From the IMG/VR virus record IMGVR_UViG_3300045988_153358: a stretch of 48,302 bases of DNA, one strand, 5' to 3'. This stretch comes from a virus (Duplodnaviria > Heunggongvirae > Uroviricota > Caudoviricetes). Position numbers and translations under genes: made by a program. The notes under the pieces are model-generated. The model worked only from the letters and a program-made list of their open reading frames with translations. It was not told the DNA's origin and did not search any database. The stretch's first letter is position 1; each line of letters starts with the position of its first letter. Positions 1,064-42,230 of this stretch are shown here, one piece after another.

Positions 1064-1076
1064 AACGAGGATTTCA

Positions 1077-10416: not shown

Positions 10417-10421
10417 ACCTC

Positions 10422-12278: not shown

Positions 12279-12289
12279 AGGAAATATAA

Positions 12290-15157: not shown

Positions 15158-15166
15158 GGTGAGTTT

Positions 15167-15550: not shown

Positions 15551-15570
15551 TATAAAGAGGTCGTATTTTT

Positions 15571-17351: not shown

Positions 17352-17833
17352 TTAATCTTTTGATAGATGCAATAAAAAATCGGTTGGAACATGAGGTTTT
17401 CCATGATTTATTAGTGCAGGGGCCTCCTTATGATGAAACAGACAGCGATATTAAATTGTTTGTTCCAACAATATTTAAAGGGTACTTGCCTCCTAAATCA
17501 CAACCATCTCCAGATAAACCGCCAGAATTTCCTCATGTGATTATCAGGCCCACGGAAGGAGGAATGCAGCCTGAAACGGATGAAGTTAAGGTTAAGTTTC
17601 TTCTAGGTGGTTTTTGTGAGGACCATACTGGATATGAATGGGTAATGGCTCTTCTTGAAAGGATGATGTTTCATTTTCAGGAGAAGCCTTTACTTGAAGA
17701 GAAATTTCTCTTTCAGGGTGATATCAGATGGCGAATGTTTGATGATCAACCATATCCATATTGGATAACGGAAGCAACTGGAACGTGGCTAGTATTAAAG
17801 CCTCAGAATATTCAGTCTCAGGAGTTTATCTAA
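17348..17833 (+). CDS. hypothetical tail completion protein (161 aa)
   Basis: ORF track; position. Confidence 0.5.
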   Translation: MINLLIDAIKNRLEHEVFHDLLVQGPPYDETDSDIKLFVPTIFKGYLPPKSQPSPDKPPEFPHVIIRPTEGGMQPETDEVKVKFLLGGFCEDHTGYEWVMALLERMMFHFQEKPLLEEKFLFQGDIRWRMFDDQPYPYWITEATGTWLVLKPQNIQSQEFI

Positions 17834-18124
17834 ATGGCTAATAAGAAAAGTAGTAAAGAAGATATAGAAAAGAAGGAAGATGTTGCTCAAACATTTGTAT
17901 ATATAGGGCCAACAATCCCTCAACTCTCAATTTTGAAGCATAAACTATTTAAGAATGGCTTATCTCCAGAGTGTGAAAAATTAATATCACATATTCCTGG
18001 TGCAAAGTGTTTGTTTGTGGCAACCAGTGATTTTTCAGATGCAGAAAAAAGACTTTCTGATAAAACCAGTGTCGAGTATGTAATGTACTCTAGAGTTTCT
18101 TCTTCTATCATGGAGATTAAATAA
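17834..18124 (+). CDS. hypothetical protein (96 aa)
   Basis: ORF track; position before sheath. Confidence 0.45.
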   Translation: MANKKSSKEDIEKKEDVAQTFVYIGPTIPQLSILKHKLFKNGLSPECEKLISHIPGAKCLFVATSDFSDAEKRLSDKTSVEYVMYSRVSSSIMEIK

Positions 18125-19587: not shown

Positions 19588-19603
19588 ATAATAGGAGGTT
19601 GCT

Positions 19604-20125
19604 TTGAGCAATCAAATTCCTGAGAGACTTATTAACTTTACAGTATACGGTGAAGGAAACCGTATTATCGGTGTTGCTGACGCAAAGCTGCCATCAATTG
19701 AGATGATGACAGAAACTGTTAGTGGTGCAGGTATTGCTGGAGAGCTTGAGAGCGGAACGCTGGGGCATTTCAAACCAATGACCGTCTCTCTTAAATGGCG
19801 AACCCTAACCTCTGCTGGTACAAAATTATTTTTATCCTCATCGCATCAGGTAGATTTTCGTGGTAGCCAGCAGGTTTATGATGCCGGAACAGGAAAATAT
19901 AAAACGGTTCCCATTCGGGCTTCAATGAAGCTAAACCCTAAAAAACTGGATTTAGGTTCGCTACAGGTGGCAAAGGCTACTGATTCAGAGAATGAATTTG
20001 AAGTTCTCTATATCAAATTATTTATTGAGGGAAAAGAAGTCCTGGAAATTGATAAATTGAACTTTATTTGTATCTTCGATGGTGAAGATATATTAAAAAG
20101 CGTTCGTGATGATTTAGGTTTATAA
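19604..20125 (+). CDS. tail tube protein (P2 FII-like), TTG start
   Basis: 173 aa; C-terminal VLEIDKLNFI pattern like FII; AGGAGG upstream. Confidence 0.8.
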   Translation: MSNQIPERLINFTVYGEGNRIIGVADAKLPSIEMMTETVSGAGIAGELESGTLGHFKPMTVSLKWRTLTSAGTKLFLSSSHQVDFRGSQQVYDAGTGKYKTVPIRASMKLNPKKLDLGSLQVAKATDSENEFEVLYIKLFIEGKEVLEIDKLNFICIFDGEDILKSVRDDLGL

Positions 20126-20134
20126 GGTGACAAA

Positions 20135-20416
20135 ATGGAAACCGTTAAATTAAGTAAAGAGTATCGTTTTGAAGACTTCGAGCCGGTGACTGAACTCAAC
20201 CTTGATTTAGACAACCTAAAAGGCAGCGATATTTTAGAAGTATCGGACTTACTGCAATCTCAAGGGCATGTTACAGTTCAAACATCACTTGATCATAAAG
20301 TCCACGTTGCTCTGGCTGCTCGCTGTATTGGCCGTCCGATAGAGTATCTGAATGGATTGCCAGCGAAAGACTTTGTTAAAGTTTGCCAAAAGGTACAGAA
20401 TTTTTTGCTCTCGTAG
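20135..20416 (+). CDS. tail assembly chaperone (P2 gpE-like), zero-frame product
   Basis: 93 aa between tube and tape measure; slippery heptamer T_TTT_TTG at 20401-20407. Confidence 0.7.
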   Translation: METVKLSKEYRFEDFEPVTELNLDLDNLKGSDILEVSDLLQSQGHVTVQTSLDHKVHVALAARCIGRPIEYLNGLPAKDFVKVCQKVQNFLLS

Positions 20417-20565
20417 GTTTTGATGAGCAAAAACCTATTGATAAGCAAATAATGAGGGCCGCGAGTTCTCTATCTCAATCATCTCAATCAACACCTATAT
20501 CCTACTGGCTTTCTCTTCGGTTGAGGCGAATTGTCGCATGGATTGATGTGTTTAATGAGGATTAA
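20135..20565 (+). CDS. tail assembly chaperone extended product made by programmed -1 frameshift at 20401-20407
   Basis: canonical X_XXY_YYZ slippery site; -1 frame stays open to 20565, just before the tape measure gene. Confidence 0.6.
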
Positions 20566-20570
20566 TACTA

Positions 20571-23363: not shown

Positions 23364-23574
23364 TTATAGAACGGTTCAAGGGGACTCATGGGATAGCATC
23401 GCGTTAAAGTTGTATGGTAATGAGTACCTGTCTTATCTTCTTATTGATGCTAATACTGAGCACCGCTTTACGGTGCTTTTTTCTGCGGGAATTATTCTTA
23501 AAGTTCCTGATGCTCCGGTTATGCCAATATCAGTAAACAATTTGCCTCCGTGGAGACGCAATAGTGTTACGTAA
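23356..23574 (+). CDS. tail protein X-like (LysM-like), TTG start
   Basis: 72 aa with VQGDSWDSIALKLYG LysM-like pattern as in P2 gpX; GGAG Shine-Dalgarno. Confidence 0.7.
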   Translation: MDDYRTVQGDSWDSIALKLYGNEYLSYLLIDANTEHRFTVLFSAGIILKVPDAPVMPISVNNLPPWRRNSVT

Positions 23575-24565
23575 AACGCTTTTTGATGTTATATATCAGA
23601 ATGTAAATATTACCGCTCATATGTCACCTGATGTTTTGTCAATGTCTTATACAGATAATGAAGATGGTCAGGTCGATGATATTTCTATTATATTAAAAAA
23701 TGATGATGGGAAATGGTCTGGAGACTGGACACCTAAAAAGTGTGATTTTATTGATTTGAGCTTTAAGCCTATAAATCAAATCGTCCTTGAGTGCGGGAAA
23801 TTCCAGGTGGATGGCATAACTTGCTCTGGACCACCTTCTGTTGTTGAGGTGACTGCTGTTTCTGTTCCTGTTTCATCAGGCATTAGACGTGATTTAAAAA
23901 GTAATGCATGGGAAAAAACAACTCTTAAAGATATAGCGACTTCTATAGCTAAATTAGCTAACCTTGAACTGTTGTTTCTTATTGATGGTGATAGTAATCC
24001 ATATTATGCGCGTGAAGATCAAATGGAGGAAAGCGATTTAAAATTTCTCCATCGACTTTGCCAGGATGAAGGGGTGTCGTTAAAGGTCACTGATAGCCAA
24101 TTAATAATATTTGCTCAAGAGATGTTTGAGCAAAAAGATCCTATCGCTACGCTTACGTTAGGTATTGATGAGATAATCAGATATAGCTTTAGCACACAAT
24201 CTACAGATTTGTATAAAAGTTGCACGTGCAAATATCGCGTACCTAAAAAAAGAAAATCGCTTTCGTATACTTGGGTAGATCCATCCGTAGAAGAAGGGGC
24301 GAATCTTAAGATAAGAAAACTGGTAGCTAATTTAGATGAAGCAAAACGTAAGGCAAAGGCTGCTTTGCGGCTTAAAAATAGATATCAAAATACCGGATCT
24401 TTAGTTTTGGTTGGAGACACCAGATTGGTAGCTGGTGTAACTATAAATCTGGACGGATTTGGTTCATTTTCTGGAAAATATCTTATATCGAAAGCTGTGC
24501 ATTCAATTGGGGCTAGTGGTTATACCACCTCGATTGATGTCCGAAGAGTAATTAATGGGTATTAA
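23564..24565 (+). CDS. tail protein D-like (P2 gpD / Mu gpP family)
   Basis: 333 aa; position and pattern. Confidence 0.65.
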   Translation: MLRKTLFDVIYQNVNITAHMSPDVLSMSYTDNEDGQVDDISIILKNDDGKWSGDWTPKKCDFIDLSFKPINQIVLECGKFQVDGITCSGPPSVVEVTAVSVPVSSGIRRDLKSNAWEKTTLKDIATSIAKLANLELLFLIDGDSNPYYAREDQMEESDLKFLHRLCQDEGVSLKVTDSQLIIFAQEMFEQKDPIATLTLGIDEIIRYSFSTQSTDLYKSCTCKYRVPKKRKSLSYTWVDPSVEEGANLKIRKLVANLDEAKRKAKAALRLKNRYQNTGSLVLVGDTRLVAGVTINLDGFGSFSGKYLISKAVHSIGASGYTTSIDVRRVINGY

Positions 24566-24567
24566 TT

Positions 24568-25188
24568 ATGAATGATTTAGAAACATTATTACGTCAGACT
24601 ATAAGAGTTGGCGTTGTTTCTGATATTGATGATGGTGATGTTACAGCAAGAGTTACTTTCGATGATCAGGATAACGTCACTTCGGCAAAGTTATCAGTTA
24701 TTGTGAAAAATACAGATAAGAATGCTGATTACTGGATGCCAGATATTGGTGAGCAAGTTTTGTGTATCTTTCATCCCGCAGGGCCGCAACAAGGTTTTAT
24801 TCTTGGTAGTTTTTATGATGAAACACAGAAGCCGCCATCTAATACTGTTAATAAACGCGTAATTAGATTTAATAACGGAACTCGTATTGAGATAGACAGA
24901 GAATCTAATTTACTCCTTGTTGATGCTGTCGGAGATGTAACCGTTAAGGCTACAGGAACCGTAACTATTGATGCTCCAGAAACCATCATTACCGGAAATG
25001 CTACAGTTGAAGGATTACTAACCTTCAAAGGTGGAATGAAAGGATCTTCTGCTGGAGGTGTTGCAGCTACAATTTCTGGGAATGTTAAGGTTGTTGGTGG
25101 TGATATAGATGTTGATGGGATTAAATCTAAAGGCCACCATCACACAGCTCAGGGGGAATACGCTCCGACAACGGAGGCTCAGGCATGA
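24568..25188 (+). CDS. baseplate assembly/spike protein V-like
   Basis: 206 aa; IGEQVLCIF and C-terminal GHHHT pattern like P2 gpV. Confidence 0.75.
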   Translation: MNDLETLLRQTIRVGVVSDIDDGDVTARVTFDDQDNVTSAKLSVIVKNTDKNADYWMPDIGEQVLCIFHPAGPQQGFILGSFYDETQKPPSNTVNKRVIRFNNGTRIEIDRESNLLLVDAVGDVTVKATGTVTIDAPETIITGNATVEGLLTFKGGMKGSSAGGVAATISGNVKVVGGDIDVDGIKSKGHHHTAQGEYAPTTEAQA

Positions 25189-25652
25189 TTGTGGGTATGC
25201 TTGGTACAATGCCTTTTGTTGCCTCATCAATAGTAGTGAATACGTTCAACAATTTTAAAAGGACGTCAAAGCGTCGTGTAGCGCGCCATGATGTTATTGG
25301 GCTTAAACCTGTTCTGGAGGATATAGGTCCAGATCTGGATGAAGTTAGTTTTAATATGCGGTTGGATACAACACTTGGCATTGTTCCATTGGCTGCGCTT
25401 TCATTACTTAGGACGATGCAATCAATTCAGGAAGTAAATCCTGTTGTAATTGGTATTCAGTATTTTGGTAATTTTATAATTACAGATATAGAGGAATCAT
25501 GGACTTATTTCGGTCCAACTGGGAATCCGCGAGTGATTATCGTCGGCATTAAATTACAGGAAGTCGGACAGACCTCTCTGAAAGAAGCATTAGTTGATAT
25601 TGCTGGCAATATAGAGTCAAAAACTAGAAGTGCGTTAGGTAAATTATTATGA
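25185..25652 (+). CDS. tail or baseplate protein (tentatively P2 gpU-like)
   Basis: 155 aa; weak recalled resemblance only. Confidence 0.4.
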   Translation: MIVGMLGTMPFVASSIVVNTFNNFKRTSKRRVARHDVIGLKPVLEDIGPDLDEVSFNMRLDTTLGIVPLAALSLLRTMQSIQEVNPVVIGIQYFGNFIITDIEESWTYFGPTGNPRVIIVGIKLQEVGQTSLKEALVDIAGNIESKTRSALGKLL

Positions 25653-25969
25653 ATAATACGTTTACCATATTATCAACTTCTTACTCGATTGATTGGTCGC
25701 CCAAAACAGTTGTAGAAGAAGTTTTGCAAAATGTCTCTACTATTATTAACACTCAGATTGGCACTGTACCATATGCCAGAAAATTAGGAGTTAATTCAAG
25801 TCCTGTTGATAGCCCCAGTCCAATTTTTATTGCTACAGCAACACGAGAAATAATTCAAAAAATTAGTGAGTTTGAGCCTAGAGCGATTATCCATTCTGTT
25901 ACTTTTGAAAGAACGGACGTTTCTGATGGTTTTATTAGGCCAAAACTTGTGATAGGAGTTAGAGAATGA
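25649..25969 (+). CDS. baseplate protein W-like (gp25 family)
   Basis: 106 aa; position before J-like gene. Confidence 0.7.
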   Translation: MNNTFTILSTSYSIDWSPKTVVEEVLQNVSTIINTQIGTVPYARKLGVNSSPVDSPSPIFIATATREIIQKISEFEPRAIIHSVTFERTDVSDGFIRPKLVIGVRE

Positions 25970-27090
25970 CGTTGCCGCGTGGTGGTTTGCCAGATATTAC
26001 TTTCGCAGATTCTAACCCGACTGATATAACAACTCGTTCAATCAGGGCTTTTGAGAGTATAACAGGTGAAACATTAGCACCTGCTGATCCACGTAGATTA
26101 TTCATCTTATCATTGTGTGAGATTATTATACAGCAAAGAAAAGCTATCGATTTTTCTGCAAAACAAAACCTTCTTACATATGGTGAAGGTGAATATCTCG
26201 ACCATATAGGCTATCTGACGGATACGCCTAGGCTGGAAGCTCAATCTGCCTTGACTACATTTGAGTTTAATCTGTCAACAAAATTATCGGGGATATATAC
26301 AATACCTGCTGGCACTCAAGTTTCAACTGGAAATGGTGTTATTTTCCAAACAGATATTTTGTTGGAAATACCTGCTGGGAAAACAGTTGGTACAGTCTCA
26401 GGATATGCTGTTATACCTGGTTTATCTGGGAATGGCTTTTTACCAGGGCAAATAAATGAGTTGGTGACTCCGTTGCCGTATGTTTCCAGCGTAAGGAATG
26501 TAACAACATCTAATTCTGGTGCTGATACGGAGTCAGATGATAATTATGCTGAAAGAATAAAACTGTCGCCGGAAAAACTGTCTACAGCAGGGCCGGAGGA
26601 TTCTTATAAATATTGGACAAGAACAGCCAATCAGAATATAAAAGATGTGAATGTATATACACCATCGCCCGGAATTGTAGAAATCCGTTCTTTGTTAGAG
26701 AACGGAGATATACCTTCTAATGAACTATTAGAGCAGATAAATAGCGTTCTCTCTGCAACTAATATTCGACCATTCACAGATAAAGTTCTTGTTAAGAAAC
26801 CAGAGAGCATTGAATACGATATAATAATTAAATACTGGATTAACTCATCGGACAAAAACAGAACAACTTTAATTCAAAGTGAGGTTGAGAAAGCTATTGA
26901 TGAGTATAAACAATGGCAACGTTCGGTTATGGGAAGAGATATAAATCCAGATGAAATTATTCAACGTTTAAAAAATGCTGGGGCTAAAAGATTAGAAATA
27001 TCAAGTCCTGTTTTTACTGTGATTGGAGAGACACAGGTCGCCAGAGAGAGAAATATAAATTGCCAGTATGCGGGGTTAGAGGATGGCTGA
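25966..27090 (+). CDS. baseplate protein J-like
   Basis: 374 aa; position and pattern. Confidence 0.75.
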   Translation: MTLPRGGLPDITFADSNPTDITTRSIRAFESITGETLAPADPRRLFILSLCEIIIQQRKAIDFSAKQNLLTYGEGEYLDHIGYLTDTPRLEAQSALTTFEFNLSTKLSGIYTIPAGTQVSTGNGVIFQTDILLEIPAGKTVGTVSGYAVIPGLSGNGFLPGQINELVTPLPYVSSVRNVTTSNSGADTESDDNYAERIKLSPEKLSTAGPEDSYKYWTRTANQNIKDVNVYTPSPGIVEIRSLLENGDIPSNELLEQINSVLSATNIRPFTDKVLVKKPESIEYDIIIKYWINSSDKNRTTLIQSEVEKAIDEYKQWQRSVMGRDINPDEIIQRLKNAGAKRLEISSPVFTVIGETQVARERNINCQYAGLEDG

Positions 27091-27664
27091 TATCTTTAAT
27101 GTTAGCTTGTTGGATGTTTTACCTCCTAACTTAGCTAGCGATCCCAACGTGATAGCTATGTCGAAAGCTATTGATGATGAACTACAAGCAATTAACAATT
27201 TAATATATAAGACAGAAATATATAGCGTTGTTGATAACCTGGACTCAGTTGTTCTCGATCATTTAGCTTGGCAATGGAATGCTGATACATGGAGGGATAG
27301 TTGGCCTGTATTGTTAAAGCGTTCTGTTTTTAAATCAATAATACGAACAAAGCGAATAAAGGGTACAAGGGCAGCGGTTGAAGATGTAGTAAATAGCTTG
27401 GGTGGAGAGGTAAACATAACAGAATGGTTTGAAACATCACCACCTGGCGAACCATATACAGCCTCAATTGTTGCTTCGATTAACTCTTTTGATGGTGCTG
27501 TTCCTTCGAAAGAGATGTTGGAGGATACGTTAAGAAGTATCAAGAGTGCAAAGTCGGCAAGAACACTATTTACATTTTCGCAAGCAACCAATGTTTCAGG
27601 TGGTGTTGGTATTGTCGGTGCTTTCCAGCCTGTGTCTTATGTACGATTAATTGGTGAGTGCTAA
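27083..27664 (+). CDS. tail protein I-like
   Basis: 193 aa; position between J and tail fibre. Confidence 0.7.
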   Translation: MADIFNVSLLDVLPPNLASDPNVIAMSKAIDDELQAINNLIYKTEIYSVVDNLDSVVLDHLAWQWNADTWRDSWPVLLKRSVFKSIIRTKRIKGTRAAVEDVVNSLGGEVNITEWFETSPPGEPYTASIVASINSFDGAVPSKEMLEDTLRSIKSAKSARTLFTFSQATNVSGGVGIVGAFQPVSYVRLIGEC

Positions 27665-27694
27665 TTTGCGATTTGTTAATCCAAGGAATTAAGC

Positions 27695-30541
27695 GTGAGT
27701 AAATTATTATTTACGATGACTGACGCCGGGCGTAAGGCGCTGGTTAATGCCAACAAGACTGGAACAAATAAAGTTGAGATCGTTTCTGTTGGTTTAGGTA
27801 GTAGATATTATGCCACATCAACCACACAAACAAAAATAACAGATGAAATAAAGCGACTTACCACAATAGGAGGCAAAGTCGTTTCTCCTGATACCATTCA
27901 TGTAACTGCGAAGGATGATAGTAAAGATGAGTATGTTGTCCATACAATAGGTTTGTATACAAATAAAGGAACATTGTTTGCTGTATACTCGCAAGAACAA
28001 GTAATAATAAATAAAGCATCTTCTACAATTGCTTTAATATCAAGTGATATAGCAATTAAAAATCTTGATACTAAAAACATTACATTTGGTGATGTTGAGT
28101 TTATTAACCCTCCCGCAACCGAAACTGTTGTTGGAGTAGCAAGATTTGCTAATGAACAAGAAATTGATGCAGGTACAGATGATTCCCTGGCTGTTTCAGC
28201 AAAGCGGCTTAAGCAAGCTATTGTAAAACATGAGCAATCACGTAATCATCCTGATGCAACTTTAACATCAAAAGGCATTGTTCAACTCAGTAATGCCACC
28301 AATAGCACGTCTGAAAAGCTCGCAGCGACGCCTAAGGCTGTTAAGGCTGCATATGACCTGGCTGACGGAAAATATACCGCCCAGAATGCCACCACGGCAC
28401 AAAAAGGGATAGTTCAGCTCAGTAGTGCCACTAACAGTACGTCTGAAACGCAGGCGGCAACGCCAAAAGCGGTCAAGGCAGCAAATGACAACGCAAATTC
28501 ACGTCTGGCGAAAAATCAGAACGGTGCAGATATCCAGGATAAATCAGCTTTTCTGGACAATGTTGGCGTTACCAGCCTGACGTTTATGAAAAACAATGGC
28601 GAAATGCCGCTTGATGCTGATCTGAATACGTTTGGTCCTGTTAAGGCTTATTCAGGTATCTGGTCTAAAGCAACATCCACCAACGCAACACTGGAGAAAA
28701 ATTTCCCGGAAGATAATGCTGTCGGTGTGCTTGAGGTTTTTGCTGCCGGCAATTTTGCAGGTACGCAACGCTTTACCACGAGAGACGGCAATGTATACAT
28801 GCGTAAACTCGCCAATAAGTGGAATGGCACTGATGGTCCGTGGGGCGTATGGCGTCACACTCAATCTGCTACCCGCCCTTTGAGTACGACTATAGACCTG
28901 AATACGCTTGGAGCCGCCGAGCATCTTGGTTTATGGCGTAACAGTAGCTCAGCTATAGCTTCATATGAACGCAATTATCCAGAGGAAGGCGGCTTTGCTC
29001 AGGGGATGCTTGAGATCCTCGAAGGCGGAAATTATGGAAGAACGCAACGTTATACCACTCGCCGTGGAAATATGTATGTCCGCTGTCTTGCGGCAAGCTG
29101 GGATGCATCAAATCCGCAGTGGGAACCGTGGTTAAGAGTCGGTCATCAGTCAGAGAGTCGTTATTACGAAGGTGATTTGAATGATGTAACCTCACCAGGT
29201 ATTTACAGCGTTACAGGTAAAGCGACCAACGGTCCAGTACTGGACGGAAACGGCGTGACTGTACTCGGCATTCTGGAAGTGTTGAGGCGGTTTGATGGTG
29301 TTAATGTATGGCAGCGTTATACAACTGCCGGAACAGGTACAACCCTTAAAGGCCGCACCTTTGAGCGCGTCTTTACCGGCAGCTCATGGAGCGAATGGCG
29401 GGAAGTCTACACCTCGTATTCACTTCCCCTGAATCTAGGTATCGGCGGTGCTGTGGCAAAGCTCACCAGCCTGGACTGGCAGACCTACGATTTTGTGCCG
29501 GGCAGTCTGATAACCGTTCGGCTTGATAACATGACCAATATTCCCGACGGTATGGACTGGGGCGTCATTGATGGCAACCTGATAAACATCTCAGTCGGTC
29601 CGAGTGATGATTCTGGTTCGGGACGCTCAATGCATGTATGGCGCAGCACTGTAAGTAAAGCCAACTACCGCTTTTTTATGGTTCGCATTTCAGGAAATCC
29701 GGGAAGCCGCACGATCACGACAAGACGTGTGCCAATTATCGACGAAGCTCAGACATGGATGGCGAAACAGACATTCAGCGGTGGTCTTTCAGGCGAACTA
29801 TCCGGCAATGCTGCTACAGCAACAAAGCTGAAAACGGCAAGGACAATTAACGGCGTAAAATTTGACGGCTCGGCAAATATTGAAGCGTTTCCGCCAGGTG
29901 TTCCGCTGCCGTGGCCATCAGATACGCCACCTGCAGGTTATGCAATCATGCAGGGGCAGACGTTTGATAAGGCAGCATATCCGAAACTGGCTATTGCCTA
30001 TCCTTCTGGTGTTATTCCAGATATGCGCGGCTGGACAATCAAGGGCAAACCCGCCAGTGGTCGGGCCGTATTGTCTCAGGAACAGGATGGCATTAAATCG
30101 CACACCCACAGTGCCAGCGCATCCAGTACGGATTTGGGTACGAAAACCACATCGTCGTTTGATTACGGTACTAAATCAACGAATAACACAGGTGCACATA
30201 CCCACAATGTATCTGGTACTGCAAATAGTGCTGGCGCACATACTCATACCGTTCCATTAAGGAGACCAAACAGTGGCGGTATGAATTTCGACTGGCTGGA
30301 TGGTTCATCAAGTGGCACGGTGGTGGGGAATGGAACTGTGCCTTCTTCTGGCGCACATACCCACTCAGTATCAGGTACCGCTACAAGTGCTGGGGCACAT
30401 GCACACACTGTTGGTATTGGCGCTCATACGCACTCTGTTAAGATTGGTTCACATGGACACACCATCACCGTTAACGCTGCTGGTAACGCGGAAAACACCG
30501 TTAAAAACATCGCATTTAATTATATTGTGAGGCTTGCATAA
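27695..30541 (+). CDS. tail fibre protein (start GTG 27695 or ATG 27716)
   Basis: 948 aa; tandem [23 protein letters not shown] repeats; C-terminal GAHTH repeats. Confidence 0.85.
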
Positions 30542-31158
30542 TGGCATTCAGAATGAGTGAACAATCACGTACCGTAAAAATTTATAACCTGCTGGCCGGA
30601 ACTAATGAGTTTATTGGTGAAGGTGACGCATATATTCCACCTCATACAGGGCTGCCAGCTAATTCTACAGATATCGCCCCACCGGAAATTCCTGCTGGCT
30701 TTGTGGCAGTTTTTAACAGTGAAAATGAATCGTGGAATATTGTTGAAGACCATCGTGGTAAAACGGTCTATGACGTGGCGTCGGGGGACGCATTGTTTAT
30801 TTCTGAACTCGGACCGCTACCAGAGAATGTCACCTGGTTGTCGCCAGCAGGGGAGTATCAGAAGTGGGACGGCGTATCCTGGGTGAATGATGAGGAAGCA
30901 GAAAAACTGTTTCGGATACGGGAAGCGGAAGAGAAAAAGGCAAGGTTGATCCAGGAAGCAACAGATAACATCGCAATTCTGCAGGATGCAGTTAATCTTG
31001 AAATAGCAACAAACGAGGAAAATTCACAACTGGATTCCTGGAGAAAATACAGAGTATTAGTGAGTAGAATTGACACCAGTACAGCTCCGGATATCGTATG
31101 GCCAGAGCTGATGAATCAGGGTTATGTTCGGGAGGACGAGCAGATAACTTCAGACTGA
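30541..31158 (+). CDS. tail fibre assembly protein
   Basis: 205 aa directly after tail fibre gene; typical N-terminal pattern. Confidence 0.8.
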
Positions 31159-31685
31159 AATTTAGTGATGAATGTTGAATCATCAGGAATATCATGCAAT
31201 ACCAATGCATGAGCACCTATTGTGACATTGTTTCCTATACGCACTTTGCCACCAAGAATGGTGGCATTACAACCAATGGTCACATTATGCCCTATAACAA
31301 TATCCATATCATTAAATTCCCCGCGAAGTCCAATAGTTACTCCGGGCTTAATTGAACAATTTTCACCGATTGTTACTTTGTGACCGATAACAACACTGTT
31401 GAGATAAGAAATATCAAAGCCTTTCCCTATATTTACAGTTAAAGGGACTGTTACATTATATTTATCAAGAATGAAACGTTCTATTTTTCCCGCAATCTTC
31501 CGACAGTATCCGCCTTTATCAAAAAGGTATTTGGCTATGCGCCACCAAAATAAATAACGAACCCTTCTATGTTTTATTGCGCGAACAATTGCCTTTCGCC
31601 AGGAGAAAGGACGCTCGCTACCGATTACTTCATAGTGAATACAGTCTTTAAGTTCATTAATATTCATATCTTTATTATTCAGCAT
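31122..31685 (-). CDS. hexapeptide-repeat acyl/acetyltransferase (left-handed beta-helix family)
   Basis: repeated [LIV]-G-x-x-x-x hexapeptides ([43 protein letters not shown]). Confidence 0.75.
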
Positions 31686-32155
31686 AAGATAATCATGTGA
31701 CCAATTATTGTAATAATTTTAATGGTATGTTTCTACTGGCTATCCAGCGTGTCTGATATCCAGTAACAAATCGTCAACACGGGTGCAATCAAATGGTGAG
31801 TGTTAAGACTGACCACTTATTACCAGGTATGAGTGGCCAGCATTAAATCAGAACAGCCCTTTAACTGAACTGGCCGCGCTGTTAAGGGATGATGTCACCT
31901 TATCTTTGAAGCCGGACAGCATATTGCTGAACGATGAGTTTACCGCAGGTTTCTGGCTGGGAATCATTGACTGGAGTTAGGCCAGTAGTATGATGCTCGC
32001 AAAACGAGATCCAATTTAGATCCTTTTACTGGTGGATTATCGTTCGATCAGTGAGAGACTTCGTGCATGACCGAAAGTGTTGTGGTAGAGTTCTCTTAAA
32101 ACCACGTAACGTGGTTATGATTGTGGGTGTCTGGTTGGAAAGTGACCAGATATGG

Positions 32156-32268
32156 AAACAAAAAGCCCGCAGATAAATCTGCGGGCTTCTTGCGACATCC
32201 ACGGAAAACCAACAATTAACCATGGGCGCCTCGACAACTCCCATTATACGTTGGTTTTCCGTGGACGC
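32156..32268 (-). ncRNA. candidate CopA-like antisense RNA region for repA control
   Basis: 16-bp perfect inverted repeat 32198-32213 / 32250-32265 with about 36-nt loop; 10-bp hairpin 32163-32188 followed on the minus strand by a U-run. Confidence 0.45.
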
Positions 32269-32280
32269 AAGAGCGAACAT

Positions 32281-33129
32281 ATGGATAGACCAATGCCGTC
32301 TCTACGTTCAGCTTACGTTTGTAATTTGTCGCCGGAGTTCCAGCGTCCAAAGCACCATACGCACAAGCTGCCGCTGGTGTTATCTGATGCTTTACAGCGC
32401 ATTAATGGGCGTGATCTTACGTGTGAGGTTGCGTTCTACGTTAATCAACCGTCAGAGCGGAAGCGCCGGATAAACGAGCATCGTCGTCGGGCGATTAATG
32501 CTGTGATCGCTGCGATTTTGCACCATGTAAACATCATTTCTAAGCGGGTTCTGGCTAGTGCTGAGGCGTTGGCTGATTTTTGCGGCCTGTCTACCGTATC
32601 CGAAGCTGGGAACAAGTCTATAACGCGCTGTACAAGGGCGTTGTCGCAACTGAAAGCGTTAGGTTTTATTGATTATGAACGTCGCTGGGATCGGGTGAAT
32701 AAACAGTATTGGCCAGCGAAAATAGAGATTCGTGATCAACTGCTGGAAACCGTTGGTATTACTGAACAAGCATGGAGACGTGCGGTTAGCCAGAAACTTA
32801 ATTACTTCAATGCGAAGAATAGCGAACGGCTTAAAAAAGCGATAACGGAGGCTGATTATAAGCGTATTGTTATTCAGGAGCAGATGGAGAATGTATGGCG
32901 TCAGAGGAAGACGGCCAGAGAGATAAAGGCAAAACAGAAAGCAGCGGAGAGAGCTGCGCGTCTTGTTCGGGAAAAGGGAGAGGCCGAACTTCGTCATCAA
33001 ATCACCAGAGAGGTTAGTCAGGAATTTGCTGATGGCATGTATCCTGGTGCTGACCTTGCATATTTACGATCCCTCGTTGAGCAGCGTTATAACAGGTTAA
33101 GAAAGACCTGGAAATCACTCCAACATTAA
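32281..33129 (+). CDS. repA: plasmid replication initiator RepA, IncFII RepA1-like
   Basis: central region (GLSTVSEAGNKSITRCTRALSQLKALGFIDYE) closely resembles R100/R1 RepA1; ORF extends upstream to 32152 but that stretch holds the stem-loops. Confidence 0.75.
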   Translation: MDRPMPSLRSAYVCNLSPEFQRPKHHTHKLPLVLSDALQRINGRDLTCEVAFYVNQPSERKRRINEHRRRAINAVIAAILHHVNIISKRVLASAEALADFCGLSTVSEAGNKSITRCTRALSQLKALGFIDYERRWDRVNKQYWPAKIEIRDQLLETVGITEQAWRRAVSQKLNYFNAKNSERLKKAITEADYKRIVIQEQMENVWRQRKTAREIKAKQKAAERAARLVREKGEAELRHQITREVSQEFADGMYPGADLAYLRSLVEQRYNRLRKTWKSLQH

Positions 33130-33400
33130 CCCACCTGAATGATGAATCCGGTTTTACCGGAGGATTATCTACGTCGCAATAAAATATCTGTTCAAAAAAC
33201 AATCTAAATTAATTTTCTCTAAACCTGAACACAGCAAAAATATCGCCTTTACAGGCATCGGCTAATAAAGTTATCCACAGTTCTGATATGTATATGCAAA
33301 TGGTTTTTTATAATAGATGCACTAAACAAATAAATGCAAAATCACTTTCTTTTATTAAGACTTTCTTTATTTAACTTACGCAGGCTTTGCCTGTGAATAT
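33130..33400. other. putative plasmid-type replication origin region
   Basis: AT-rich tract directly downstream of repA with a perfect DnaA box TTATCCACA at 33271-33279. Confidence 0.5.
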
Positions 33401-33772
33401 GTTCGCCCTTGCAGCGAGCTAAAGCTCGCGCCGGTTCGAGTCGCTACGCTCAAATATACCTCCTCCGGCACTTGCCGGAGGCATGGAGCAGCCTGATCAT
33501 CCTTTTCGAAACGGCACGTTTCGAACTATACAAAATCAATTTATATAAGGCCGAAATAAGGCCTACGGCCGGGCTTTGCAGGAGGAAGGGGCGAGCCTTA
33601 TCAATAAACGTCGATAAATACGCACACAGTAGCCATCAGAACGCGATAAAATGTAAGAAACATCATTTCCTATTAGACATAGAAAACTTGTCTTATACGC
33701 AATGTAGTAAATTTCTATTGCCACATAGGAAAAGATTTCCTACCATCGTAGATATAATAAATGGAGATGGTT

Positions 33773-34060
33773 ATGGATAAAGATACTGTTTTAAAAATGT
33801 TGAATCCGGCTTGTTTAAAAAAAGCGGATGAATGGGAATCTCCTACATGTGGAGAAGTTCGGGCAGTCATTGGCCTGACCGGAATGAGCGGCTCGCAGTT
33901 AGCCAAAAAACTAGGCTTAAAAGATAGTCGCAATGTTCGCAACTGGCAGATGTTAAAGGAGTCCACATCCAGATCCAGCATTCCGTATGCAGCCTGGGCG
34001 CTGCTGTGTTACTTCGCTGGGTTAGGGTTAATCTTCATTGATAACAAAACAGATGTTTGA
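33773..34060 (+). CDS. hypothetical HTH protein with C-terminal transmembrane helix (95 aa)
   Basis: HTH-like GMSGSQLAKKLGL, hydrophobic IPYAAWALLCYFAGLGLIFI; GGAG Shine-Dalgarno. Confidence 0.5.
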   Translation: MDKDTVLKMLNPACLKKADEWESPTCGEVRAVIGLTGMSGSQLAKKLGLKDSRNVRNWQMLKESTSRSSIPYAAWALLCYFAGLGLIFIDNKTDV

Positions 34061-34083
34061 AACATGCAAATATGAGGTTTGTT

Positions 34084-34347
34084 ATGGAACTTGTACGCAA
34101 AACACGCAAAGAGTTCTTGGACCTGTATCGCATGGGAGCTTTCACTTGTGTTGTGGCTACCCAGGACGAAGTGACAAAAAGCTGGCGGCTTTTTGCTCTC
34201 AATAAAAAAGGGATTGCCGTTTTCATTGAAAAAGCCCGTGGTGGTATCCGCGAATGGGCGGGATTGAATTATGTGGCTGATTTTTGCGCAGCTATGGGGA
34301 TTCGTCGCTGGGAAGTCCATATGCCAGGAGTAAAGTCACAAAAATAG
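34084..34347 (+). CDS. hypothetical protein (87 aa)
   Basis: ORF track; internal ATG with GAGG Shine-Dalgarno. Confidence 0.45.
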   Translation: MELVRKTRKEFLDLYRMGAFTCVVATQDEVTKSWRLFALNKKGIAVFIEKARGGIREWAGLNYVADFCAAMGIRRWEVHMPGVKSQK

Positions 34348-34535
34348 GGCTTTCGCGTCGAAAATGAGGCGAAACTGAAAACGAGATTTCATTAACAAAT
34401 AAGCAACATAAAAAACGGTGGAAAACGCCCAGGAAAACATGATCTTTTGAGCGGATTTTTTAGATCCGACAATGAACGGTGATCCGGTGGTGCCGATAAC
34501 GTCCATTATGTTAAATAGCCCCGTTTTTCTTGAAA

Positions 34536-34581
34536 TTATAACTCACAGGTTATATAGTTAGTGATATAAACTACAGGTTAT
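34536..34581 (+). promoter_or_regulatory. two dyad-symmetric operator-like sites upstream of the toxin-antitoxin operon
   Basis: TATAAC-N6-GTTATA at 34536-34553 and TATAAA-N6-GTTATA at 34564-34581. Confidence 0.5.
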
Positions 34582-34591
34582 AGGATTGAGC

Positions 34592-34939
34592 ATGTGGACG
34601 GTACTTTTTAGCCAGCGATTTGACGACTGGCTAAATGAGCAAGAAGACGCTCTTCAGGAAAAGGTTTTGGCTGATTTGAAAAAGCTACAGGTTTACGGAC
34701 CTGAGTTACCCAGGCCATATGCCGATACCGTAAAAGGTTCTCGGTACAAAAATATGAAAGAGCTTCGCGTTCAGTTTTCTGGCCGTCCGATAAGAGCCTT
34801 TTATGCGTTCGATCCGATTCGCCGGGCCATCGTTCTTTGTGCAGGAGACAAAAGTAACGATAAGCGGTTTTATGAAAAACTGGTGCGTATAGCTGAGGAT
34901 GAGTTTGCAGCACATCTGAACACACTGGAGAGCAAGTAA
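34592..34939 (+). CDS. type II toxin, RelE/ParE superfamily (gp49/HigB-like)
   Basis: 115 aa; MWTVLF start, ELPRPYADTVKGSRYKNMKELR and VLCAGDKSNDKRFYE patterns; upstream of HTH partner. Confidence 0.75.
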   Translation: MWTVLFSQRFDDWLNEQEDALQEKVLADLKKLQVYGPELPRPYADTVKGSRYKNMKELRVQFSGRPIRAFYAFDPIRRAIVLCAGDKSNDKRFYEKLVRIAEDEFAAHLNTLESK

Positions 34940-35238
34940 TGAGAACATTAGATGAGGCGATTGCCAGCCGTTCACCTGAAAGCCAGGCGCGAATTAAAGA
35001 AATGGCAGATGAGATGATTCTTGAGGTCGGCTTGCAGATGATGCGTGAAGAACTCCAGTTATCACAAAAACAGGTTGCTGAGGCGATGGGTATAAGCCAG
35101 CCAGCAGTAACAAAGCTGGAGCAGCGCGGAAATGATTTAAAGCTGGCGACATTAAAGCGTTACGTTGAAGCTATGGGAGGCAAATTAAGCCTGGATGTTG
35201 AGCTTCCCACAGGAAAACGAATAGCGTTTAACATCTGA
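34939..35238 (+). CDS. HTH (XRE-type) antitoxin
   Basis: 99 aa; HTH LSQKQVAEAMGISQPAVTKLE; ATG overlaps toxin stop. Confidence 0.75.
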   Translation: MRTLDEAIASRSPESQARIKEMADEMILEVGLQMMREELQLSQKQVAEAMGISQPAVTKLEQRGNDLKLATLKRYVEAMGGKLSLDVELPTGKRIAFNI

Positions 35239-35280: not shown

Positions 35281-35285
35281 CGCTC

Positions 35286-37494: not shown

Positions 37495-38694
37495 TTATGG
37501 TCTGCTCTTCTGTGCCAGCTTATCAGCACATGTTTTTATCAGATCCTGTAGTGTCCTGGCTGGCAGGTTTGCATCCAGTACGCTGAGTATGCTGTTGTGA
37601 TCTGCTTGGTCGACTACTTTGCCTGTCGGTGGTAGTAGCTTGAGCTGAGGATTCAGGTTTTCGTCAAAGCTGATAAGTGCTCTGGCGTTTCTGAGCAGAT
37701 CAAGAAGTAAGGCTGATATCACATTTTCCTGAGTCATTGCTGACAGATTTAGCGCCGCTTTGGTTTTCCCTGTTGCCTTGTCAAACTCCTTGATTAGTTC
37801 CTTCCTGTAGTTCGGTTCCGTTAATAGCCGATTATGCTCTGTTGCCGCGCGGATAATCGTTTTTTCCTGGTACAGTCGTTTAGCCAGATCACGCTCGTAC
37901 TGTGTTTTTAACACGCTGCTGATAGCGTTAAAGGCTTCAATGTAGGCCAGCTTGATATCTTTCACGCCTGGACCGTCGATACTTTCCATGAGCAAGGTAA
38001 ATCCGTCTTTTGTCATGCGATAGATTGTTATTTCGCGGTCGCTTCCTTCCAGCGGTCGTTGCTCTTTAAAGAAATGACGTGCCGCAGCTGTGCGAGGAAT
38101 GCGTAACGCATCGATGGCCATAACGATGGAATTGTTTGTGGTGCTGAATGCCTGGGCAACATCGGCTGAGGTTGTGAGTGGCTCGTTGTTGCACACCTTA
38201 ATGTAAAACATCGGTTTGGCGTTGAGCGTATCGACAACCTCACGAGCATTGTTTGGCGAGACGGTTACGGTCGCGGCCGTTTGTGTGTTCTGGCTGAAAT
38301 AGCAGTCTTCCAGCCGTTCGAACACATCCCAAGCCTGATCGGTTTCAAGCATTTTGGCGTGACGTGCAGCCCCGCGTTCTGTCCAGAGAATGAGGGAGCG
38401 GGCTTTCGGGGAAATTTGTAACCCTCTTAAAGATGGTTGCACATTTTGTGAGTTACTTAAAGTAACCCGCAAATTTTGTGAGTGACTTAAAGTCACTCGC
38501 AAAGTTTTTAACTCATCGCCAGCCACTTTGAAAAAATGCTTTCCTTCAATAAAGCGGTTTGCGTTACGTGAGTAATTTTTTTTGATGTTATCAACGTCTG
38601 TGCCGTATAGCTTTGCCAGTAGTTCAGTAGTGATAACGGGGATCTGGTTATGCAGGATAGGCTGTAGGGTGTTAACGGTCGGAAGCGTTTTCAT
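37495..38694 (-). CDS. antirepressor-like protein (ORF6N/KilA-type N-terminus, Rha-like C-terminal part)
   Basis: ITTELLAKLYGTDVDNIKKNYSRNANRF motif; downstream of a small overlapping ORF and structured RNA region. Confidence 0.65.
   Translation of the reverse strand: MKTLPTVNTLQPILHNQIPVITTELLAKLYGTDVDNIKKNYSRNANRFIEGKHFFKVAGDELKTLRVTLSHSQNLRVTLSNSQNVQPSLRGLQISPKARSLILWTERGAARHAKMLETDQAWDVFERLEDCYFSQNTQTAATVTVSPNNAREVVDTLNAKPMFYIKVCNNEPLTTSADVAQAFSTTNNSIVMAIDALRIPRTAAARHFFKEQRPLEGSDREITIYRMTKDGFTLLMESIDGPGVKDIKLAYIEAFNAISSVLKTQYERDLAKRLYQEKTIIRAATEHNRLLTEPNYRKELIKEFDKATGKTKAALNLSAMTQENVISALLLDLLRNARALISFDENLNPQLKLLPPTGKVVDQADHNSILSVLDANLPARTLQDLIKTCADKLAQKSRP
38443..38502. repeat. two tandem 30-bp dyad-symmetric repeats inside the antirepressor gene
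   Basis: ATTTTGTGAGTTACTTAAAGTAACCCGCAA then ATTTTGTGAGTGACTTAAAGTCACTCGCAA; arms GTTAC/GTAAC versus GTGAC/GTCAC. Confidence 0.8.
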
Positions 38695-38882
38695 TTTGCA
38701 CCTCCCATAACTACTTTGGTTACGAGGGAGATTTTTGCGTCAGAAACAGCGTTATCGTTGCTGGCGATGCGCATAGCTTCGCGCTCGATGATTTCAGCCA
38801 GGCGGAATTTATCGGCGTATGAGGCTTTCTTGAGAAGGATCTTTACGAGGTTGACGTAATAGTCATGGGGTAGGTTTGTCAT
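38691..38882 (-). CDS. small ORF (63 aa) overlapping the antirepressor start; icd-like position
   Basis: 4-nt overlap with downstream gene; AGGGA Shine-Dalgarno. Confidence 0.45.
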   Translation of the reverse strand: MTNLPHDYYVNLVKILLKKASYADKFRLAEIIEREAMRIASNDNAVSDAKISLVTKVVMGGAK

Positions 38883-39046
38883 TGTGATGATTCCCTTAAA
38901 GGTTAAGGATACTCACCACCGTCAGGTTCCAATCATTGGGTGGTGAGACGTGCAGGGTTGGAACTACCGGACACAATGACGAACCGGCGAGTCTTACGAC
39001 TCCCCCGCACGCCCCACCATAATTTGGGTGTAGCAGTGCTTTACGC

Positions 39047-39150
39047 ATAAAAAAACCGCTAACGCGGTATGCGCCATTGTGTCTACGGGGTTCCAATCCC
39101 GACCGTAGATTTTGCTACGGCTCGGAAAGTGTCCACCAATGGCGCATTCA
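39047..39150 (-). ncRNA. candidate c4-like antisense sRNA (5-prime end not determined)
   Basis: minus-strand hairpin ACCGC-GUUA-GCGGU plus U7 at 39049-39068; stem CCGUAG/CUACGG; GAUUGGAACC element repeated in the leader at 38925-38936 and complementary to 38954-38964. Confidence 0.35.
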
Positions 39151-39638
39151 TGTCAATACGGCGGGATTTTAACAGAGACAACCACATAGCGTGGGTTTAT
39201 TGGTAGGCAGAAACAAAAAAACCGCCCTATTGAGGACGGTTCTTTCGTGCTGATCGGATTCGCGGTCCTTTCAGCATAACGTCGTTGTATAAACAACCAC
39301 GCAAGCACAAGCAGCAAGTTAATTTTACCCAAAAGGTAATAATAGTCCACTATTATGCTTCAAAAAATTGTGGTTCTTGTTGTGCCTGCAAACTCACAGA
39401 TTGTGGGTAGGTTACTGATTTTGTGAAAATAAACGAGTTTTTTCGTTTAATTTCTTTCCTATTACTAATCTTAAAATAATCGTAAAATACCTGTGGACCT
39501 TCCCGCCGATTCGCACCCGGGCACCGACTTTAGGGGAGGATTCTCCGTTGCCGTACATGCAAGCACAAGCAGCCGTGCTTGCTCTCGCGTTGTTTTCGTC
39601 GGTGGGGATGCCGTGAAACGGCCTGTAAGGGCCATACA

Positions 39639-39761
39639 ATGAAAAAATACTGTATGTGTATTTTTATCGTTGTTACTGGGGCTTTGTTTACGCCACATGG
39701 GGAGGGTTGGAAGATTACTGATAACGCTCTGAATGTGACGATAAACATTAGCAGCAAGTAG
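39639..39761 (+). CDS. possible small hydrophobic peptide (40 aa)
   Basis: AAGGG Shine-Dalgarno 8 nt upstream; translation MKKYCMCIFIVVTGALFTPHGEGWKITDNALNVTINISSK; strong terminator follows. Confidence 0.3.
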   Translation: MKKYCMCIFIVVTGALFTPHGEGWKITDNALNVTINISSK

Positions 39762-39766
39762 CGATT

Positions 39767-39790
39767 AGGCCCCTTCGGGGGCCTTTTTTA
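39767..39790 (+). terminator. Rho-independent terminator with UUCG tetraloop
   Basis: AGGCCCC-TTCG-GGGGCCT followed by TTTTT. Confidence 0.75.
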
Positions 39791-40259: not shown

Positions 40260-40302
40260 GTGTATCCCCTCTTATATAAATCTATAAATCTATAATTATA
40301 TA
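40260..40302. promoter_or_regulatory. AT-rich repeat motif between parA stop and parG start
   Basis: tandem TATAAATC units; same motif family as other intergenic sites. Confidence 0.5.
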
Positions 40303-40956
40303 TTACGCGGCAGTAGTCAGAGCCTCAAGCTGGTTGATAATCCCCTGAATAACGTCGTCTGCCTTTTTGCGTGGCGCAACGTATGAGCATTCAATGAGGC
40401 TTAAGCCCTTATCCTGAGCTTTGCTCAGAGCTGGCTTGTGGGGAATGTACTTATCGACAACAAAGTATGGCGTATTAGCCAGGTACTCTTGGGCTTCAAT
40501 GTAGTCGGCTTCGTTTTCAGCCGCGCCTGAGAACACCATGCAAATTTTCTTGATTGGCACACCCTTTTTAACGATGCCGTGAGCTGTGTTAACGGTGGTT
40601 TCTAGGTCATCGGTAGAGAATCTGGTTGGCAAAATAACCATATCCAGAAATTCAGAGAGCTTCGGTACTGATTCAGATGCGTAGGCACCGCCATCGACGA
40701 TAACCAGGTCGTATACTTCTGATTCGATGATTTTCTGGACTTGTGATGGCGTGCCGCACGGCTGCGCCGCGATTGCAGGTTCGATATTGTTGGCCATTCT
40801 GCGTTGTACCCAACGCGTTACCGTTCCGTTAAGCACATCCATATCGATCAGGCATACATTCCAGCCGGCCTTTGCATAAGCAACTGCTAAAGCACGGGCA
40901 ATTGTTGATTTGGTTACGCCGCCTTTTCCGTTGAAAATACCTACAGAGATAGTCAT
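40303..40956 (-). CDS. parA: ParA/MinD-type partition ATPase
   Basis: deviant Walker A GIFNGKGGVTKST; start at second ATG chosen because of GGAG Shine-Dalgarno. Confidence 0.8.
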   Translation of the reverse strand: MTISVGIFNGKGGVTKSTIARALAVAYAKAGWNVCLIDMDVLNGTVTRWVQRRMANNIEPAIAAQPCGTPSQVQKIIESEVYDLVIVDGGAYASESVPKLSEFLDMVILPTRFSTDDLETTVNTAHGIVKKGVPIKKICMVFSGAAENEADYIEAQEYLANTPYFVVDKYIPHKPALSKAQDKGLSLIECSYVAPRKKADDVIQGIINQLEALTTAA

Positions 40957-40974
40957 TTGTCGAGACTCCATGTG

Positions 40975-41573: not shown

Positions 41574-42230
41574 TCATAACCAGTTGACAACACTAACTAC
41601 GCGGCCAAGAACTTTATAACGCTTAAATTCCTCGTTATTCAGATGCTTAGTGTTCATTTCAGCATCCCTTTCGGTTGACAGCATAACAGCATTGTCACCC
41701 GGTATGACTCTACAGTGCCTCAAAACAACCAGGCCATTTCTGTCTTCAAGGGCATAGATCCCCTCATGAATCTCTGTATCGTCTGTATTAATCAGGACTT
41801 GGGAGCCAGGGGATATTGTTGGTGACATTAACTCATCGTTGCTCTGGAGAACTGACAGAGACGATGGGTTGATGTTCTTGCTTCGTAGAATCTCCTGTTC
41901 TATCGCCAGCACTGGCTTTTCTCCGGCGTGCGATGCTATGTCATTTTTTATAGCTACAAGCCCAGGAATAACAGGAGCGTTAGTATTCTGGGGTGGGAAC
42001 GGGTTATCTGTTAAGCACGCGATATAAGGCGCTGATGCTTTCAGGGCGTGCGCGATTTTCTTGATGGCAGGTATAGATGGTTGTCTTAATCCGGCCTCAT
42101 AGTTCTGCAAGGTGCTTAAGCCTATTCCAGTGACTTGCTGGAGATCTCCGGCAGTCATGCCGGATTGTTTCCGTAGAGTCTGAATGCGCAGACCTATTTC
42201 TTTCTTGATGTTCTCGTCGTTGCTTTTCAT
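41574..42230 (-). CDS. CI-like repressor (N-terminal HTH, C-terminal S24/LexA-like peptidase domain)
   Basis: HTH GMTAGDLQQVTGIGLSTLQNYEAG; S24-like C-terminal region; divergent from cro-like gene. Confidence 0.8.
   Translation of the reverse strand: MKSNDENIKKEIGLRIQTLRKQSGMTAGDLQQVTGIGLSTLQNYEAGLRQPSIPAIKKIAHALKASAPYIACLTDNPFPPQNTNAPVIPGLVAIKNDIASHAGEKPVLAIEQEILRSKNINPSSLSVLQSNDELMSPTISPGSQVLINTDDTEIHEGIYALEDRNGLVVLRHCRVIPGDNAVMLSTERDAEMNTKHLNNEEFKRYKVLGRVVSVVNWL

Follow-up and report, generated by a model that had tools for sequence, protein, structure and literature searches.

A 48-kb temperate myovirus genome carrying replication, partition and addiction genes, very probably a circular phage-plasmid of enterobacteria

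The virus record IMGVR_UViG_3300045988_153358, a stretch of 48,302 nucleotides (the window, with all positions counted from its first letter), is in all likelihood the complete genome of a temperate myovirus whose prophage is an autonomous circular plasmid, in other words a phage-plasmid. This reading was adopted because the window combines a complete set of virion and lysis genes and a CI-like repressor with replication (rep), partition (par) and HigBA toxin-antitoxin genes, because no recognised recombinase was found, and because near-identical relatives exist as separate circular plasmids. An initial annotation, made from the letters of the sequence, had proposed a plasmid-maintained phage without an integrase, and had named profile searches for integrase families in six frames and the topology of the contig as checks. 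The proposal was borne out by a negative Pfam scan of 91 open reading frames (ORFs) and by the location of relatives with more than 99% identity on plasmids. The features on which the analysis relies are collected in Table 1.

Table 1. Features of the window discussed in the text
Feature	Position	Strand	Evidence or remark
Terminal direct repeat	1..119		Exact 119-bp identity to 48184-48302; assembly overlap, giving a 48,183-bp circle
Lysis cassette: two holins, GH108 endolysin, small downstream ORF	1029..2559	+	Phage_holin_8, Phage_holin_3_7, Glyco_hydro_108, PG_binding_3
Complete virion module	9856..31158	+	Pfam and RefSeq annotation of collinear plasmid
Hexapeptide-repeat acetyltransferase	31122..31685	-	Pfam Hexapep 1.1e-12; beside tail-fibre genes
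Remnant of DNA-invertase gene 3' end, ~30 bp	31939..31970	+	Homology to ATCC 25922 plasmid resumes at 31939
Promoter-like site of repA leader (TTGACT-16-TATGAT)	31967..31994	+	10/12 consensus matches; kept in Salmonella relative
Candidate countertranscript	32148..32272	-	Complementary to repA leader, just 5' of repA start
RepA initiator, IncFII/IncL-M superfamily	32281..33129	+	PF02387 and NF040977 matches; PGAP-style start is 32152
Candidate origin	33271..33360	+	DnaA box TTATCCACA (33271-33279), then conserved AT-rich block
Three hairpins 3' of origin	33410..33530	+	Kept in Salmonella relative; DNA fold z=-4.0
HigB-like toxin, RelE/ParE superfamily	34586..34939	+	Pfam Gp49 5.7e-23; PHROG 'toxin' 9e-34
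HigA-like helix-turn-helix antitoxin	34939..35238	+	Pfam HTH_3 3.9e-10
Second immunity region, P1 ImmI-like	37495..39121	-	Rfam and Pfam matches
ryfA/timP homologue, full-length	39493..39789	+	Rfam ryfA 141.8 bits
Candidate centromere-binding ParA partner, 82 aa	40011..40259	-	Directly downstream of parA
Iteron array, 8-bp period (TTATATAA/TTATAGAT)	40272..40307		Between parA and 82-aa gene
Small Walker-type ParA ATPase, type Ib-like	40303..40971	-	222 aa; P-loop at ~10-20; without N-terminal helix-turn-helix
Two iteron arrays	40980-41007 and 41053-41080		Flank promoter-like site upstream of parA
CI-like repressor	41574..42230	-	Pfam HTH_3 4.5e-11; weak Peptidase_S24 0.0018

Genome form, replicon state and phage genes

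The contig is a complete circular unit, closed by the overlap of its two ends. It was collinear with the circular E. coli plasmid pMB9698_3 (NZ_CP103471.1, 47,715 bp) at 99.3-99.7% identity, also across the junction, and the differences between the two were confined to two short variable stretches. The topology check was thus positive on both counts, as the contig closes into a circle and its near-identical relatives are separate plasmids. In PLSDB, 192 plasmids matched the region 31122-35238, 33 of them covering at least 80% of it. The Yersinia phages vB_YpM_39/41/44 (49 kb) matched the same region at ~99% identity over 80% of its length, and their identity to the window in the structural genes was 98.3-98.6%. 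The records of these phages, which give the host as Y. pestis EV76-CN, are nearly without annotation and unclassified. These database entries of phage isolates, with 98-99% identity to the window, are the only evidence that the element may form infectious virions.

The replicon state of the element was assessed in 5,426 complete E. coli genomes, with the terminase-portal segment and the segment from rep to the toxin-antitoxin genes (rep-TA) as queries. The terminase-portal segment was found in 72 genomes, and 76 of its 77 places were on plasmids; the rep-TA segment was found in 112 genomes, at 130 places of which 129 were plasmid-borne. Among the matches listed, the carrier plasmids measured 31-94 kb, and most of them 46-52 kb. 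The ~48-kb family is present in ~1.3% of finished E. coli genomes, including that of the reference strain ATCC 25922, and its range extends to E. albertii, E. fergusonii, Klebsiella and Salmonella. Among the complete E. coli genomes, the element is carried by at least six separate assemblies of ATCC 25922 / Seattle 1946, which argues for stable inheritance. One ATCC 25922 assembly (CP032086) has the element twice in a single 94-kb plasmid record, probably as a dimer or through assembly duplication. Relatives shortened to 31-39 kb, or with an insertion sequence (IS) in the terminase gene, also occur and point to decay within the family.

All 91 six-frame stop-to-stop ORFs of at least 100 aa were compared with Pfam (E<=0.01). 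No integrase was found among them, and no resolvase, large serine recombinase, DDE transposase or protelomerase family either; the families that were found were phage structural, lysis, regulatory, methyltransferase, ParB_N-domain and nuclease families. PADLOC, run on ten unassigned ORFs, returned a methyltransferase match only.

The virion module encodes a gpA terminase, a portal protein (portal_2), a ClpP-type protease, a decoration protein, capsid E, a sheath (assigned by annotation of relatives), a tube and a tape measure protein, and its tail genes comprise baseplate J, V, W, gpU and gpD, a tail fibre and a fibre assembly protein. The virion, lysis and regulatory genes were intact ORFs with full-length family matches. 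Besides a full virion and a lysis cassette, a CI/Cro switch had been claimed for this genome. The virion, lysis and CI components were recovered; for a Cro homologue there was no confirmation, as the first rightward ORF (42405-42899) had no Pfam match. The CI-like gene heads a minus-strand block that runs into the par genes. In the gap between it and the first rightward ORF, a near-perfect palindrome was observed at 42351-42384 (14-pair stem, 6-nt loop), which is likely an operator.

The second immunity region consists, on the minus strand, of an isrK-like RNA (39049-39121), a c4 antisense RNA (38936-39024), a 63-aa ORF (38691-38882) and an antirepressor with ORF6N and Rha domains (37495-38694). 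The Rfam C4 match scored 77.8 bits (gathering score 45) and the isrK match 67.7 bits, also above its gathering score, and the antirepressor matched Pfam ORF6N (4e-20) and Phage_pRha (4e-12). The circuit would be a second layer of immunity besides CI.

Replication, partition and addiction genes

The ORF 32152-33129 matched Pfam IncFII_repA (PF02387) with E=5.6e-43 over residues 52-318, and its product passed the NCBIfam model RepA_IncFII_LM (NF040977) with 231 bits against a cut-off of 70. With the strict IncFII RepA model TIGR03474 the score was only 77 bits, below the cut-off of 446.9. The label of an IncFII-like RepA, given initially, consequently holds at the level of the superfamily and fails at that of the strict model. 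The closest RepA proteins outside the family, by tblastn, were those of a Buchnera plasmid (47%) and of 43.6-kb enterobacterial (pKPC_UVA01-size) plasmids (37%); classical IncFII plasmids were not among the tblastn matches at E<=1e-10, and no RepA relative was found in the GTDB species representatives. At the DNA level the rep region was confined to 63 plasmids, all of them non-mobilizable and, for those listed, 32-52 kb in size. These include the Salmonella Concord plasmid pAR-0407-1 (the Salmonella relative), with 74% identity in the rep region and the same gene order.

In pAR-0407-1 the first 43 codons of RepA as annotated in E. coli were missing and frame-broken. The true start of RepA is probably the ATG at 32281 or 32293, because the extension from 32152 is absent and frame-broken in this relative, and the E. 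coli records probably annotate RepA 43-47 codons too long. The RefSeq-style start, the ATG at 32152, traverses the target of the control RNA (32152-32280). Transcription of the repA leader is presumably driven from the promoter-like site listed in Table 1.

The minus strand just upstream of repA was predicted to fold into a long hairpin (32196-32266) and a GC-rich terminator hairpin (32155-32191), followed by the U-run UUUUUGUUU, with a minimum free energy (MFE) of -69.5 kcal/mol and z=-9.6. The U-run is present on the minus strand only, the plus strand being without one. This segment was nearly invariant between the window and the Salmonella relative, while the flanks have diverged. Across six distinct variants in the family, 95.7% of the cells were paired, against 36-49% with slid partners, and three base pairs, one of them in the terminator stem, showed compensatory changes on both sides. 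Weak Rfam Thr_leader matches only reflect the terminator hairpin. No conserved tap-like leader peptide was seen, as no small ORF abutting repA is common to the window and the Salmonella relative. The candidate RNA is read as a countertranscript that would control RepA synthesis, by analogy with CopA/CopT and from outside the CopA family.

A DnaA-box origin had been proposed for this region and was found to be well placed. The perfect DnaA box is the sole one in the 48-kb window and lies 142 bp 3' of the repA stop; one-mismatch boxes did not exceed chance frequency, and the AT-rich block 3' of the box was nearly identical in the 74%-identical Salmonella relative. On these features the segment 33271-33360 is the probable origin, at which replication would fire. 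The three hairpins that follow it may, speculatively, be a single-strand initiation site for lagging-strand priming.

The ParA-type ATPase matched Pfam CbiA (1.7e-12), MipZ (5e-9) and ParA, the PHROG ParA-like group (2e-39) and, in the PDB, ParF (4dzz, E=3e-4); with NCBIfam NF041546 (ParA_partition) it scored 78 bits, below the cut-off of 180. For the 82-aa protein encoded next to it, close homologues only were found. Its AF2 model has a disordered N-terminal half, a strand-like segment and two helices (47-59 and 62-79), with a pLDDT of 70-84. When aligned to ParG (1P94) by hhalign, it was in register with the ribbon-helix-helix part, at E=0.062 and a probability of 0.9%, which is not significant. 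The pair had been described initially as ParA/ParG-like: the ParA half of this description stands, and the ParG-like label of the partner is a reasonable guess from architecture alone and is unproven.

The iteron motif TTATAGATTTATA, with up to 2 mismatches, occurred 24 times in the window against 2.0 expected, in eight intergenic clusters (2686-2714, 3827-3847, 35284-35312, 40272-40307, 40980-41007, 41053-41080, 44811-44836 and 46025-46056). The Salmonella relative had iteron clusters at syntenic places, with 22 occurrences against 1.0 expected. Three of the eight AT-rich clusters lie around the par genes, and the two arrays upstream of parA (40980-41080) are a candidate centromere/operator. 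Another three head a repeat unit of ~120 bp, present at 3820-3940, 35285-35405 and 44812-44929, which forms an identical promoter and 5' untranslated region (5'UTR) ahead of unrelated genes, namely an 89-aa ORF, a 126-aa ORF and the gene of a DUF3560 protein. Each unit is made up of iterons, a -35/-10-like pair (in two of the three copies of the unit), the common 5'UTR, a Shine-Dalgarno sequence and an ATG. The unit ends in this ATG, so that the DUF3560 gene is taken to start at ~44929 and not at 44871. A promoter scan did not call the promoters read by hand in the ~120-bp unit or upstream of parA.

It is conceivable, although rather doubtful, that all eight iteron arrays are bound by the 82-aa ParA partner, which, much like omega of pSM19035 or SopB/sopC of N15, would then act as a dispersed centromere binder and a genome-wide repressor at once. 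If this were true, the partner would couple plasmid segregation to phage and accessory gene expression in a circular enterobacterial myovirus-plasmid. The dispersed iteron clusters, possibly a centromere/operator network, are the sole feature of the element beyond routine classification. Three proteins with ParB_N/Srx domains are encoded at 5986-9865, just upstream of the terminase genes, one of them (6603-7982) fused to a methyltransferase domain; they are separate from the ParA pair and probably do not form the partition system.

The toxin-antitoxin pair of the initial annotation was confirmed at 34586-35238 as one of the HigB/HigA type, on the basis of the Gp49 and HTH_3 matches. RefSeq relatives annotate the counterpart of its first gene as a RelE/ParE toxin. 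The toxin-first order is that of HigBA, and the start of the antitoxin overlaps the toxin stop codon by 1 nt, as read from the sequence. The ryfA homologue holds a 40-codon hydrophobic ORF (39639-39761; MKKYCMCIFIVVTGALF...), the position of which agrees with that of the TimP toxin ORF described in PMC7667032. The locus is a type I toxin candidate and might constitute a second addiction module.

Proposed maintenance and alternative explanations

Maintenance of the phage-plasmid might proceed as follows. The cos-type linear DNA would circularise after infection, and RepA with host DnaA, acting at the box downstream of repA, would open the AT-rich block so that replication starts. The ~120-nt countertranscript would pair with the hairpin of the leader that immediately precedes the repA ribosome-binding site, and in this way limit RepA synthesis and copy number, which is presumably low. 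The small ParA and its 82-aa partner would segregate the copies by means of the iteron arrays, AT-rich and 8-bp-periodic, that surround the par promoter, and HigB/HigA, perhaps together with the TimP-like type I toxin, would kill or arrest cells losing the element. CI and the P1-like c4 RNA/antirepressor circuit would hold the lytic genes off until induction.

Several observations weigh against this reading. The episomal state of the window's own sequence is deduced from its relatives, and virion DNA is another possible source of a circular assembly. One of the 77 terminase-portal places and one of the 130 rep-TA places were labelled chromosomal, the record not being among the matches listed. 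No dimer-resolution function was found in the window, that is, neither a recombinase nor a dif/cer-like XerCD site within 3 mismatches. The window gave no match to Rfam CopA (RF00042) at the gathering score or at E<=10, which leaves the antisense-type control region claimed at the outset as a conserved two-hairpin countertranscript candidate without CopA membership. The antisense promoter is weak (8/12 by eye) and was not called by the promoter scan. The 82-aa protein had no Pfam, PDB phmmer or Foldseek match (best Foldseek E>=1.9). Finally, no paper was found that shows induction or a plasmid state for this phage-plasmid family.

The element might instead be a plasmid with captured or retained phage genes, and as such a defective plasmid prophage, which forms no infectious particles and is inherited vertically only. 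The lack of experimental induction data in the literature found would agree with this, as would the shortened relatives and those with an IS in the terminase gene. The virion, lysis and regulatory genes of the window, however, are all intact, and the isolates vB_YpM_39/41/44 share 98-99% identity with it over both the structural module and the rep-TA region, so that this alternative was considered improbable.

Less probable still, and very unlikely overall, is an integrating prophage that uses a recombinase too divergent to be recognised, or host XerCD at a dif-like site, with the plasmid records representing excised or mis-assembled forms. The one place labelled chromosomal in each search, and several ORFs of 100-240 aa without family assignment, could be cited in its favour. 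Against it stand the absence of any recombinase family among the six-frame ORFs of at least 100 aa and of a dif/cer-like site at the threshold used, and the overwhelming location of both query segments on plasmids, mostly of 46-52 kb; dedicated rep, par and toxin-antitoxin modules would moreover be superfluous in such a prophage. An over-long IMG/VR contig (IMGVR_UViG_3300029841_000009, 68.5 kb) contains a full copy of the element joined to other phage DNA (13857-20375 of that contig) via the variable early-gene region. It was ruled out as a host junction, as the extra DNA is the terminase-portal/packaging region of a lambdoid E. coli prophage and not host genes, and the contig represents a chimeric assembly or a true recombinant rather than an integration site.

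Pseudolysogeny, in which the DNA of an essentially lytic phage persists as a carrier state without regulated plasmid replication, has a parallel in the plasmid-like pseudolysogen known for an unrelated Y. pestis phage (PMC11177050), but is scarcely credible for an element that has RepA with a control RNA, par and toxin-antitoxin genes as well as a CI-like repressor and c4/antirepressor immunity, and that was found in numerous unrelated finished genomes and repeatedly in assemblies of a single strain from 1946.

Relation to known elements and neighbouring features

The phage-plasmid is a known kind of element, and the family described here is abundant in databases and apparently undescribed in the literature. 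A literature search with phage names, plasmid accessions and family names, including D6-type plasmid prophages, found no description of this ~48-kb family. The plasmids or phages pSLy3 and AnCo3 were ruled out as members, being ~100 kb SSU5 relatives, and so was HQ103, an unrelated 32-kb phage. Recent surveys recognise well-defined phage-plasmid groups of 55-111 kb, which are P1, N15, AB and SSU5-related, and none of them fits the element in size and virion type.

P1 is a ~94-kb plasmid prophage with an iteron-controlled RepA, ParA/ParB, Phd/Doc and Cre/lox. The element resembles P1/P7 as a temperate myovirus that exists as a circular plasmid prophage with its own initiator, partition and addiction modules, in its immunity region with a c4 antisense RNA (Rfam C4) and an antirepressor, and in the invertible tail-fibre segment and Cin/Hin-type invertase of its relatives. 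It differs from P1 in size (48 kb against 94 kb), in its lambda-type head and terminase (gpA, portal_2, capsid E), in having an IncFII-superfamily RepA with a countertranscript where RepA of P1 is controlled by iterons, in its small ParA with a short partner in place of ParA/ParB, in HigBA in place of Phd/Doc, and in the absence of a dimer-resolution system of the Cre/lox type. The element is P1-like in lifestyle and is assembled from other parts: the head is lambda-type and the tail P2/Mu-type, RepA belongs to the IncFII superfamily and has putative RNA control, the par locus is type Ib-like, and the addiction module is HigBA.

The replicon shares with the IncFII plasmids R1/R100 (copB-copA-tap-repA-oriR) the Pfam IncFII_repA domain, a structured countertranscript opposite the repA leader and a DnaA-box origin ~140 bp downstream of repA. 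It departs from them in failing the strict RepA model and in having no Rfam CopA match, and a conserved tap-like peptide was not seen in the comparison with the Salmonella relative. No CopB was identified in the window, where no search aimed at CopB was made.

The par locus is similar to ParF/ParG of TP228 and to delta/omega of pSM19035, in that its ATPase is a small Walker protein lacking an N-terminal DNA-binding domain, the next gene encodes a short protein whose N-terminal tail is disordered, and short repeats at 8-bp spacing lie around the promoter of the par operon. As with omega of pSM19035, the repeats also precede several other promoters. Compared with ParF/ParG, the match of the window's ParA to ParF is weak (E=3e-4), the 82-aa protein is not significantly similar to ParG, and iteron binding is predicted. 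The scattering of candidate centromere/operator repeats around a phage-plasmid genome, beside phage genes, is shared with N15, the dispersed sopC sites of which link partition proteins to late gene expression, according to the account of Ravin et al. (2008) given in PMC11652158. N15 is linear, with a protelomerase and SopA/SopB (type Ia), whereas the window is circular, lacks a protelomerase and encodes a type Ib-like pair.

Genes travel with phage-plasmids in viral as well as in plasmid form, and such elements are readily mistaken for 'cryptic plasmids'; the result is mainly the correct classification of an element that is already abundant in databases. The element would be a compact model of an RNA-controlled replicon of the IncFII superfamily coupled to a lysogeny switch, of partition-site repeats that possibly double as regulatory sites, and of a phage-plasmid that manages without a dimer-resolution recombinase.

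In many relatives of the element the tail-fibre segment is invertible and comes with two opposed assembly genes and a Hin/Cin-type invertase. In the window, a tail-fibre module swap at 27695-31970 has left a single, fixed fibre end with one assembly gene and an acetyltransferase, and of the invertase gene a short 3'-end remnant is present; a tblastn search with the invertase of the ATCC 25922 plasmid recovered residues 175-184 only. The maintenance set had been taken to begin at 31122. This boundary was not upheld, as 31122-31685 encodes the hexapeptide acetyltransferase, which is cargo and not a maintenance gene. A tRNA-Met (CAT) gene lies after the lysis cassette, at 2853-2928 on the plus strand, and is annotated in vB_YpM_44 too.

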